Assembly: GCF_003334315.1 (NCBI RefSeq)
Contig: NZ_QOWR01000008.1
Reading direction: 5' to 3' (one strand)
DNA length: 64,000 nucleotides
Source: Escherichia coli
GTDB lineage: Bacteria; Pseudomonadota; Gammaproteobacteria; Enterobacterales; Enterobacteriaceae
Part shown: positions 50,120-50,687 of the stretch, piece after piece
How positions within the stretch are numbered: position 1 is the first letter of the stretch
Layout: each line of letters opens with the position of its first letter
Notes under the pieces: generated by a model
Told to the model about the DNA's origin: nothing
Database searches by the model: none
Seen by the model: only the letters and a program-made list of their open reading frames with translations
Position numbers and translations under genes: made by a program

Positions 50120-50687
50120 GTCGATCCCCTGACAAGGAAATGTGAACCATGGACATCAACGCGTCATAAATGTTTACGCAAGTGCACAATGCACCCTTTC
50201 CACTATCAACAAGGAGGAGCAGAAACTGTGTAAATCGTACAATGGCAAGACTTATCAAAAATACAGATTAATTTTGGTATTTAAACCTTTTTTACTTGTT
50301 AGTATGATACAAAGGCTTTCAAAAAAGCTGGGAAATTCAACAACTCTTGGAAATTATGGACTTTGTCCCGCGGCTTTAATCTGACGGCCGCGTTCCTTTT
50401 TTGACTCAATTATTGACCCCTTCTCTACGCAACTTCAGTTCCCACCACCAACTTTGCGGCAGTTTCATAGGATGAATGTCTAAAAGAATAATGGTGAGCG
50501 ATAAGAAAACGACTGAATAACTGCACATTTTCGCTCGAAAGCTTCCTGTCAGATCCATAGCGGATCAAGTGCTGAATGTCACAGTATCGAACAGAAAACA
50601 GTGACGATCTAACCCTTCAAGAATATTCTACGATTGTTCTGTTTAGGAAAAGCAAGGGGGAAGTCAGGAGATAAGTCATTGATAAAG

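Follow-up and report, generated by a model that had tools for sequence, protein, structure and literature searches.

In the window, by which we mean the whole 64-kb stretch of Escherichia coli DNA analysed here, zinT (48575-49246) and yodB (49589-50119) lie on the plus strand and are followed by a spacer (50120-50687) and by serU (50688-50777), a tRNA-Ser(CGA) gene placed on the minus strand by ARAGORN. Past serU come mtfA, asnT and yeeJ, all on the plus strand. Because serU lies on the minus strand and points at yodB, the spacer is downstream of both genes. An earlier note on this DNA had described a non-coding interval upstream of serU. Its coordinates are exact, with a length of 568 bp, and ‘upstream’ holds in coordinates only, serU being on the minus strand. 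The interval is indeed non-coding in current annotation: no feature is annotated in MG1655 or in any of the ~90 RefSeq genomes among the matches listed. The spacer is 100% identical to that of strain HS30-1 and 98.6% identical to that of K-12 MG1655; K-12 coordinates equal window coordinates plus 1992779, a conversion valid for 50120-50657. Rfam 15 covariance models (E<=1) gave no match inside the spacer except ones overlapping serU itself. The impression of a featureless spacer did not hold. It contains an intrinsic terminator, a Rho-dependent terminator, a candidate small-RNA cassette (block A) and part of a 338-bp attP-identical segment, as follows:

50120..50687, no strand: spacer between yodB and serU, which converge on it with their 3' ends
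50120..50259, no strand: yodB-linked flank, found only in yodB-carrying strains
50142..50384, plus strand: 80-aa ORF with a GTG start, judged spurious
50258..50402, plus strand: block A, putative promoter-to-terminator small-RNA cassette
50258..50311, plus strand: predicted cassette promoter region, an A/T-rich block with -35 TTTAAA at 50280-50285 and -10 TATGAT at 50303-50308
50312..50402, plus strand: predicted small-RNA-like transcript of ~90 nt, with a 5' hairpin, a single strand, a GGAC-UUU-GUCC hairpin and a terminator
50292..50402, plus strand: segment absent from E. albertii, 111 bp, with CCTTTT(TT) direct repeats at both bounds
50369..50402, plus strand: intrinsic terminator, a 7-bp GC-rich stem and 10-nt loop, then UUCCUUUUUU
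50404..50562, minus strand: variable linker, with the published Rho-termination peak for serU read-through at ~50446
50411..50747, no strand: extended att identity segment, shared with serU-integrating lambdoid phages
50563..50687, minus strand: 3' trailer of serU, conserved, its transcribed strand rich in C and poor in G (rut-like)
50688..50777, minus strand: serU, tRNA-Ser(CGA); its 3' 61 nt (50688-50748) are the att core of a CP-933U-like prophage

One base is missing in this strain at 50657/50658 (GGGGG versus GGCGGG in 13/13 other E. coli compared). The missing base shifts the end of a 32-aa ORF (50576-50674; 35 aa in K-12), whose ATG reads ATA in E. albertii.

The earlier note had also pointed to an 80-aa ORF as a weak candidate gene. 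The ORF is present at 50142..50384 with a GTG start, and it has no recognisable domain, with no Pfam match even at E<=10 and no NCBIfam match. The AAGGA reported ~10 nt upstream is in fact at 50134-50138, 3 nt before the GTG. The candidate is indeed weak, and its length is at chance level: when the spacer was shuffled 2000 times with dinucleotides preserved, 16% of the shuffles had a longest ORF of 80 aa or more. The N-terminal ~35-40 residues are encoded by a segment that ~42% of E. coli genomes lack and are unrelated in yodB-less strains, because the ORF spans the boundary of the yodB indel. Among 14 strains the frame is open in 13 and frameshifted in one (L089). SNPs in 50260-50384 comprise 6 non-synonymous and 3 synonymous changes in this small sample, and in the 111-bp core (50292-50402) 5/5 SNPs change an amino acid in the ORF frame. 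This simplified form of the in-frame conservation and dN/dS check proposed earlier refutes the ORF as a gene. In the loci compared, its DNA is absent outside E. coli and E. albertii. The frame also crosses the terminator hairpin, and the ATG of its 26-aa C-terminal part, at 50304, sits inside the -10 box. The ORF is called a ‘hypothetical protein’ in older GenBank/UniRef entries, with a cluster of 83 members; it has been dropped from RefSeq, and none of the current annotations, MG1655 included, carries it (~90 genomes among the matches listed). Against all this, the open frame in most strains and the database cluster carry little weight, and a real small protein, whether the full ORF or the part starting at 50304, is extremely improbable. 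The ORF is a chance frame that runs across an indel boundary and through a candidate RNA gene, and it can be dismissed. With it falls a spurious ‘hypothetical protein’ that GenBank and UniRef entries continue to list. The sequence under it appears to be conserved for a reason other than the ORF frame.

Distribution and diversity of the spacer

The distribution of the spacer was determined in 5426 complete E. coli genomes, with the flank counted via at least 80% coverage of the spacer. The spacer including its first 140 bp is present in 3065/5426 genomes, and 50260-50687, with block A inside it, is kept in 5343/5426 (~98.5%). The difference lies in yodB. About 2280/5426 genomes are without yodB, and their sequence is unrelated up to ~50242-50259, a resumption point that varies with blastn settings. 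Presence or absence of yodB is thus a polymorphism of 49247-50259, where ~220-240 bp of other sequence replace ~1 kb. A 13-nt remnant of the zinT terminator stem is common to the yodB-plus and yodB-less alleles. E. albertii has the yodB-less form. yodB has been used as a clone marker for ST410 clones (PMC10786849).

Within the cassette, 50280-50403 is identical to the window in three B2-type yodB-less strains (L002, L003 and L090), and it differs at one and two positions in two further yodB-less strains. Diversity across 14 diverse E. coli divides the spacer into three zones, listed here with two genes from the same strains. Low diversity among 14 related strains is weak evidence of selection.

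50260-50403: 5/111 variable sites in the 111-bp core (50292-50402), pi 0.0075 in the core
50404-50562, variable linker: 25 SNP sites and a 15-bp deletion, pi 0.06
50563-50687, serU trailer: 4/126 variable columns, pi 0.006
Comparison genes: zinT pi 0.018, mtfA pi 0.011

Two strains carry private changes. The 15-bp deletion, in L087, is homologous to 50467-50481, in the linker close to the published Rho peak. Strain 25DN (L088) has two private promoter changes (50298 and 50306), one of which makes TATGAT the consensus TATAAT.

Beyond E. coli, homologous spacer DNA was found in E. albertii only, and 0/74 loci from other species matched the spacer. The trailer is 85% identical to that of E. albertii. 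The order serU-mtfA-asnT is kept in all loci checked with ARAGORN (n=20) except one without serU (L016). In cryptic Escherichia clades and E. whittamii (L009-L011), L009 has shiA and amn instead of zinT downstream of serU and an extra asn tRNA nearby; L010 and L011 also have the extra asn tRNA. The extra asn tRNA in these three loci suggests rearrangement between asn tRNA copies.

E. albertii lacks precisely the 111 bp at 50292-50402, and its alignment retains the promoter-upstream part that is homologous to the phage copies described below. An insertion of the 111 bp in E. coli was therefore rejected, and deletion in E. albertii is the likelier direction, because the phage-like upstream part has remained there. 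Judged from these alignments, E. albertii most likely lost the body of the cassette by deletion. Since it keeps the upstream part and is without 50292-50402, the cassette would be older than the split between E. coli and E. albertii.

Transcription stops and phage integration at serU

The intrinsic terminator at the end of block A folds with -11.6 kcal/mol (z -2.3), and its stem is invariant in the 14 E. coli. It was overlooked by a simple consensus scan because its 10-nt loop exceeds the 8 nt that the scan allows. Adams et al. 2021 (PMC7815308) list an ‘orphan’ Term-seq 3' end at K-12 2043181(+), which converts to window 50402 and so falls on the final U of UUCCUUUUUU. The counts are low (2241 and 1864), and the end was recorded in 2/3 conditions, with none in LB at OD 0.4 (PMC7815308). 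Plus-strand RNA accordingly ends at this terminator, with its 3' end at 50402. Another Term-seq ‘orphan’ 3' end, K-12 2044735, falls at ~51955 (+) between asnT and yeeJ, where it comes after a hairpin (GCGCCCTCGACC..GGTTGAGGGCG) followed by TTTT.

On the minus strand, no stable fold was found in the serU trailer (z +0.7), and an intrinsic terminator is therefore lacking there. The first 78 nt after serU contain 24% C and 13% G on the transcribed strand, a C/G ratio of 1.9. The tables of Adams et al. 2021 (PMC7815308) also contain a Rho termination region at K-12 2043225(-), again listed as ‘orphan’ and equivalent to window 50446. Coverage upstream and downstream of it is 7705/24 without bicyclomycin, an inhibitor of Rho, versus 9053/1099 with it (PMC7815308). 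The table gives a Rho score of 39 and p 2e-241 (PMC7815308); the position is the peak of 800-nt window comparisons and marks neither a rut site nor a stop at the nucleotide level. Read-through from serU is thus stopped by Rho inside the spacer, ~240 nt past the tRNA, and the C-rich trailer right after serU is probably the Rho loading site. A trailer with more C than G and a bicyclomycin-sensitive stop ~240 nt past the gene resemble Rho-dependent terminators behind stable-RNA genes. The Rho peak and the plus-strand intrinsic stop are ~45 bp apart. Two unexplained ‘orphan’ entries in the K-12 tables, the 3' end 2043181(+) and the Rho region 2043225(-), are thereby accounted for.

Elements that target tRNA genes insert precisely in the 3' flank, which for serU is the spacer. 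At the junction in an O157 strain, 61 nt from the 3' end of serU come after the spacer and are followed by a prophage that carries espJ and a gene for an EspF-repeat protein. We take this serU prophage, with espJ and the EspF-repeat gene, to be of the CP-933U type. A Stx1d prophage has been reported between serU and yodB (PMC9729726). In other strains an integrase, an IS3 element with tail genes, or a terminase lies at or inside the spacer. Overall, the junction of spacer and serU is continuous in 3856/5426 genomes (71%) and interrupted in ~29%. The annotation of L091 (strain PCN061; 1930-2066) gives serU as a 137-nt ‘tRNA-OTHER’ with a DNA polymerase V pseudogene behind it, an insertion into the serU tRNA that differs from the others.

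The serU integration site is empty in this strain. As stated earlier, no integrase adjoins serU or asnT and no direct repeat of a tRNA 3' end flanks them; the 3' end of serU is single copy in the 64-kb window, with no local direct repeat beyond chance length. asnT is also unoccupied, with yeeJ downstream as in K-12. Three of the yodB-less strains (L002, L003 and L090) have an integrase and the yersiniabactin island downstream of asnT.

The segment 50411-50747, which comprises linker, trailer and 60 nt of serU, has 96% identity over 338 bp to phage mEp332. Its 277-bp spacer part (50411-50687) has 95.7% identity in ev099 and PhiR70_1. In ev099, the att segment lies between int-xis and tail-fibre genes, the usual position of attP. 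The segment is where serU-specific phages land, and it offers them an extended arm of homology. Two features agree with known tRNA att sites, which at serU include those of the CP-933U-type prophage, the Stx1d prophage and phage SerU-LTIIb: the 3' 61 nt of serU are duplicated at the prophage junction, and an integrase lies near the reconstituted tRNA in phage ev099. Unlike in such sites, identity to mEp332, ev099 and PhiR70_1 extends 277 bp past the end of the tRNA and far exceeds the usual core. The 338 bp of att identity show that serU phages carry the tRNA trailer with them. On integration, a phage of the mEp332 type would set its 277-bp copy behind the restored serU, which would therefore retain the same downstream flank as the one to which the Rho-dependent stop was mapped. 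The phage copy may in this way keep the downstream signals of the tRNA intact, and it would allow exchange between phage and host.

The whole spacer might be neutral phage debris, with the low diversity of its two conserved blocks due to recent gene conversion from att arms. The 96% identity of 50411-50747 to phages fits this idea, as recombination with phage copies can homogenise or diversify a sequence, and so do the distinct haplotypes in the linker. However, block A is outside the att identity segment, since the homology ends 9 bp short of it, and block A was not found in the att regions of mEp332 or ev099. The Rho-dependent and intrinsic terminators are also experimentally active in K-12. 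We therefore consider neutral debris an improbable account of the spacer.

Phage relatives of block A

Block A has relatives elsewhere in phages. A sensitive search with 50255-50425 against phages and plasmids returned short matches to the terminator module, and a three-way alignment revealed a common architecture with a compensated stem. At least 120 IMG/VR contigs contain the 16-mer GGACTTTGTCCCGCGG, and in 10 of them it belongs to the E. coli spacer itself as prophage flank. Phage-type copies with promoter and terminator motifs were obtained from 98 of these contigs and represent 33 distinct variants. The phage copies are ~81 nt long and consist of a 5' hairpin, a pyrimidine-rich single strand, a GGAC-UUU-GUCC hairpin and a terminator. 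Their consensus has three helices with covariation, and the outer two, helices 1 and 3, include U-A/C-G exchanges. The invariance of helix 2 is due in part to the search, since the copies were found via the 16-mer that covers it.

A covariance model (R1) was built on 23 phage variants only. It matches the window at 50312-50400 over its full length (positions 1-81) with 52.5 bits and a rough E-value of 1.8e-9, and the score is equal in K-12, O157 and B2 strains. No match was obtained in the serU loci of E. albertii and other Enterobacteriaceae. In a joint alignment of window and phage copies, which was fitted to R1, 98.8% of the cells are paired and 6/6 pairs of helix 1 are changed on both sides; 0/500 shuffles reach the observed values, and slid controls give ~45%. 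The promoters agree as well. In the phage copies (28 distinct upstream regions), AAATTAAGGTTAAT... is followed by an invariant TTTAAA, 17 bp and TA(A/G)TAT. The window shares this arrangement, with GATTAATTTTGGTA, TTTAAA and then TAGTAT/TATGAT. The spacing from TTTAAA to TAGTAT (50300-50305) is 14 in the window versus 17 in the phages; the overlapping TATGAT (50303-50308) gives 17, and TTTAAA-17-TATGAT was also the promoter found by a consensus scan.

In the phages, the element lies between a Q-like antiterminator gene and the genes for holin, endolysin and Rz, on the strand opposite to the late operon. This placement was seen in L110, in a prophage of the DH5alpha genome, in phage vB_EcoS-683R6 and, by ORF inspection, in L135; in the four contexts examined, the relatives are antisense to the late operon. 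The DH5alpha prophage that carries the element is presumably phi80. The window copy is not at a Q-to-lysis location. Away from any phage genes, it sits in the chromosome between yodB and serU. The window copy is a displaced member of a phage Q-to-holin small-RNA-like family, whose other members appear to reside in phi80-like and lambdoid prophages. Block A was rejected as a mobile element in its own right, as it has one copy in the window, is not on true plasmids and has no terminal inverted repeats.

Several further matches to R1 were seen. Phage or plasmid copies are followed by a weak second match (~22 bits) in L096 (654-715), L218 (3612-3673), L097 (645-710) and L103 (1964-2050), and one viral contig has a second diverged copy ~1 kb away with 56.8 bits. 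These second matches may be tandem or paralogous family members. Elsewhere in the window, a weak match at 29421-29503 (-) (16.7 bits, E 0.16) is probably a chance terminator-like hit.

One phage-type variant occurs in 221/5426 E. coli genomes. Among the records listed, none has an RNA annotation at that variant, and some have a hypothetical-protein call there. Four phage copies searched with Rfam 15 matched none of its families. No published name was found for the small-RNA-like family, though it may carry one in published tables. Known phage small RNAs were considered as its identity and rejected. PreS is located elsewhere in lambda, and R1 has no match in the lambda Q-S region. At the AsxR locus of Sakai Sp5, R1 scores only 3.6 bits and the terminator is different, which excludes AsxR/AgvB. 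For PasC, the esterase-holin interval of phage 2B8, which reportedly carries pasC, has no match beyond 12-mers to the family or the window.

Tree et al. 2014 (PMC4104026) described AgvB and AsxR, anti-sRNAs encoded convergently at a moron site 3' of PR' in lambdoid prophages. Downstream of Q and antisense to the late transcript, the relatives of block A in phages have the same kind of location, and they share with these anti-sRNAs a short length, a 3' hairpin-terminator module that is conserved and a 5' part that varies more. AgvB and AsxR have no relationship to the family in sequence or structure, and the AsxR terminator reads GCCCGA..UCGGGC. Their RNAs are 51-60 nt long versus ~81-90 nt in the block A family, and they are found in prophages, whereas the window copy is in the core chromosome. 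PasA and PasC of EPEC prophages lie between sialate esterase and holin genes (PMC8550237, bioRxiv 10.64898/2026.05.13.724894). The Pas sRNAs, compared in sequence through the PasC interval of phage 2B8, resemble the family as prophage small RNAs adjoining holin-lysozyme genes. They are Hfq-associated and end in an intrinsic terminator. They are reported to be restricted to pathogenic lineages, whereas block A is in ~98.5% of E. coli.

Block A as a candidate small-RNA gene

The architecture of 50258-50402, with a promoter, a ~90-nt RNA of three hairpins and a terminator, is that expected of a complete small-RNA gene. Published Hfq data touch on its expression. An entry ‘yodB.serU.IGR’ is present among Hfq RIL-seq chimeras (Bar et al. 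2021 Table S1, PMC8175672, which re-used Melamed 2016 data). It has 39 chimeric fragments with one partner in exponential phase and 33 with two partners in a second data set, is always second in the chimera and has a U-tract of 6 (PMC8175672). Its sRNA scores, 0.010 and 0.046, are under the 0.1 cut-off, and the table gives no strand (PMC8175672). A tract of 6 U agrees with the plus-strand terminator, but one is also present on the opposite strand across block A. For ompF, a partner that we assigned by matching table values, the predicted duplex is no better than shuffles. No entry for the serU spacer turned up in EPEC RIL-seq supplements, where naming may differ. The Cappable-seq and SMRT-Cappable-seq supplements list no transcription start site coordinates within the region, whichever genome version is used.

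The 3' end at 2043181 could also be that of a 283-nt yodB 3' UTR. Block A would then be a dead relic whose terminator today does no more than form the 3' end of yodB mRNA, with no independent small RNA. Between the yodB stop and 2043181 the table lists no further 3' end on the plus strand, the hairpin of yodB itself is weak, and both expression and RIL-seq sRNA scores are low, all of which is consistent with a relic. Its weakness lies in the yodB-less strains. In L002, L003 and L090 the cassette (50280-50403) is unchanged from the window, and zinT in these three strains has its own terminator upstream; therefore nothing there needs terminating. Conservation of the promoter hexamers and of the upstream block with the phage copies also argues against a relic, and so does the position of the spacer RNA in Hfq chimeras, always second, as sRNAs are. 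On balance a relic seems rather unlikely, though it deserves to be kept in mind.

Block A most likely still yields a low-abundance, Hfq-associated RNA. We infer that this RNA starts at its own promoter and has a function. Tentatively, block A may be a working phage-derived small-RNA gene that has been in the E. coli core genome since before the split from E. albertii. For the spacer as a whole we hold a firmer view: it is probably phage-shaped non-coding DNA that combines a two-sided transcription stop, a small-RNA gene and a landing site for serU phages.

If correct, block A would be the chromosomal member of a prophage small-RNA family that has no Rfam entry and is apparently undescribed. 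In phages the family could control lysis genes, and it could also control host targets in trans. Block A is a testable small-RNA candidate, nearly universal in E. coli and clearly related to phage elements. The way in which small RNAs of phages turn into core-genome regulators is under active study, and the locus would provide a dated example, present in E. coli, with its body deleted in E. albertii and with many phage variants whose stems covary.
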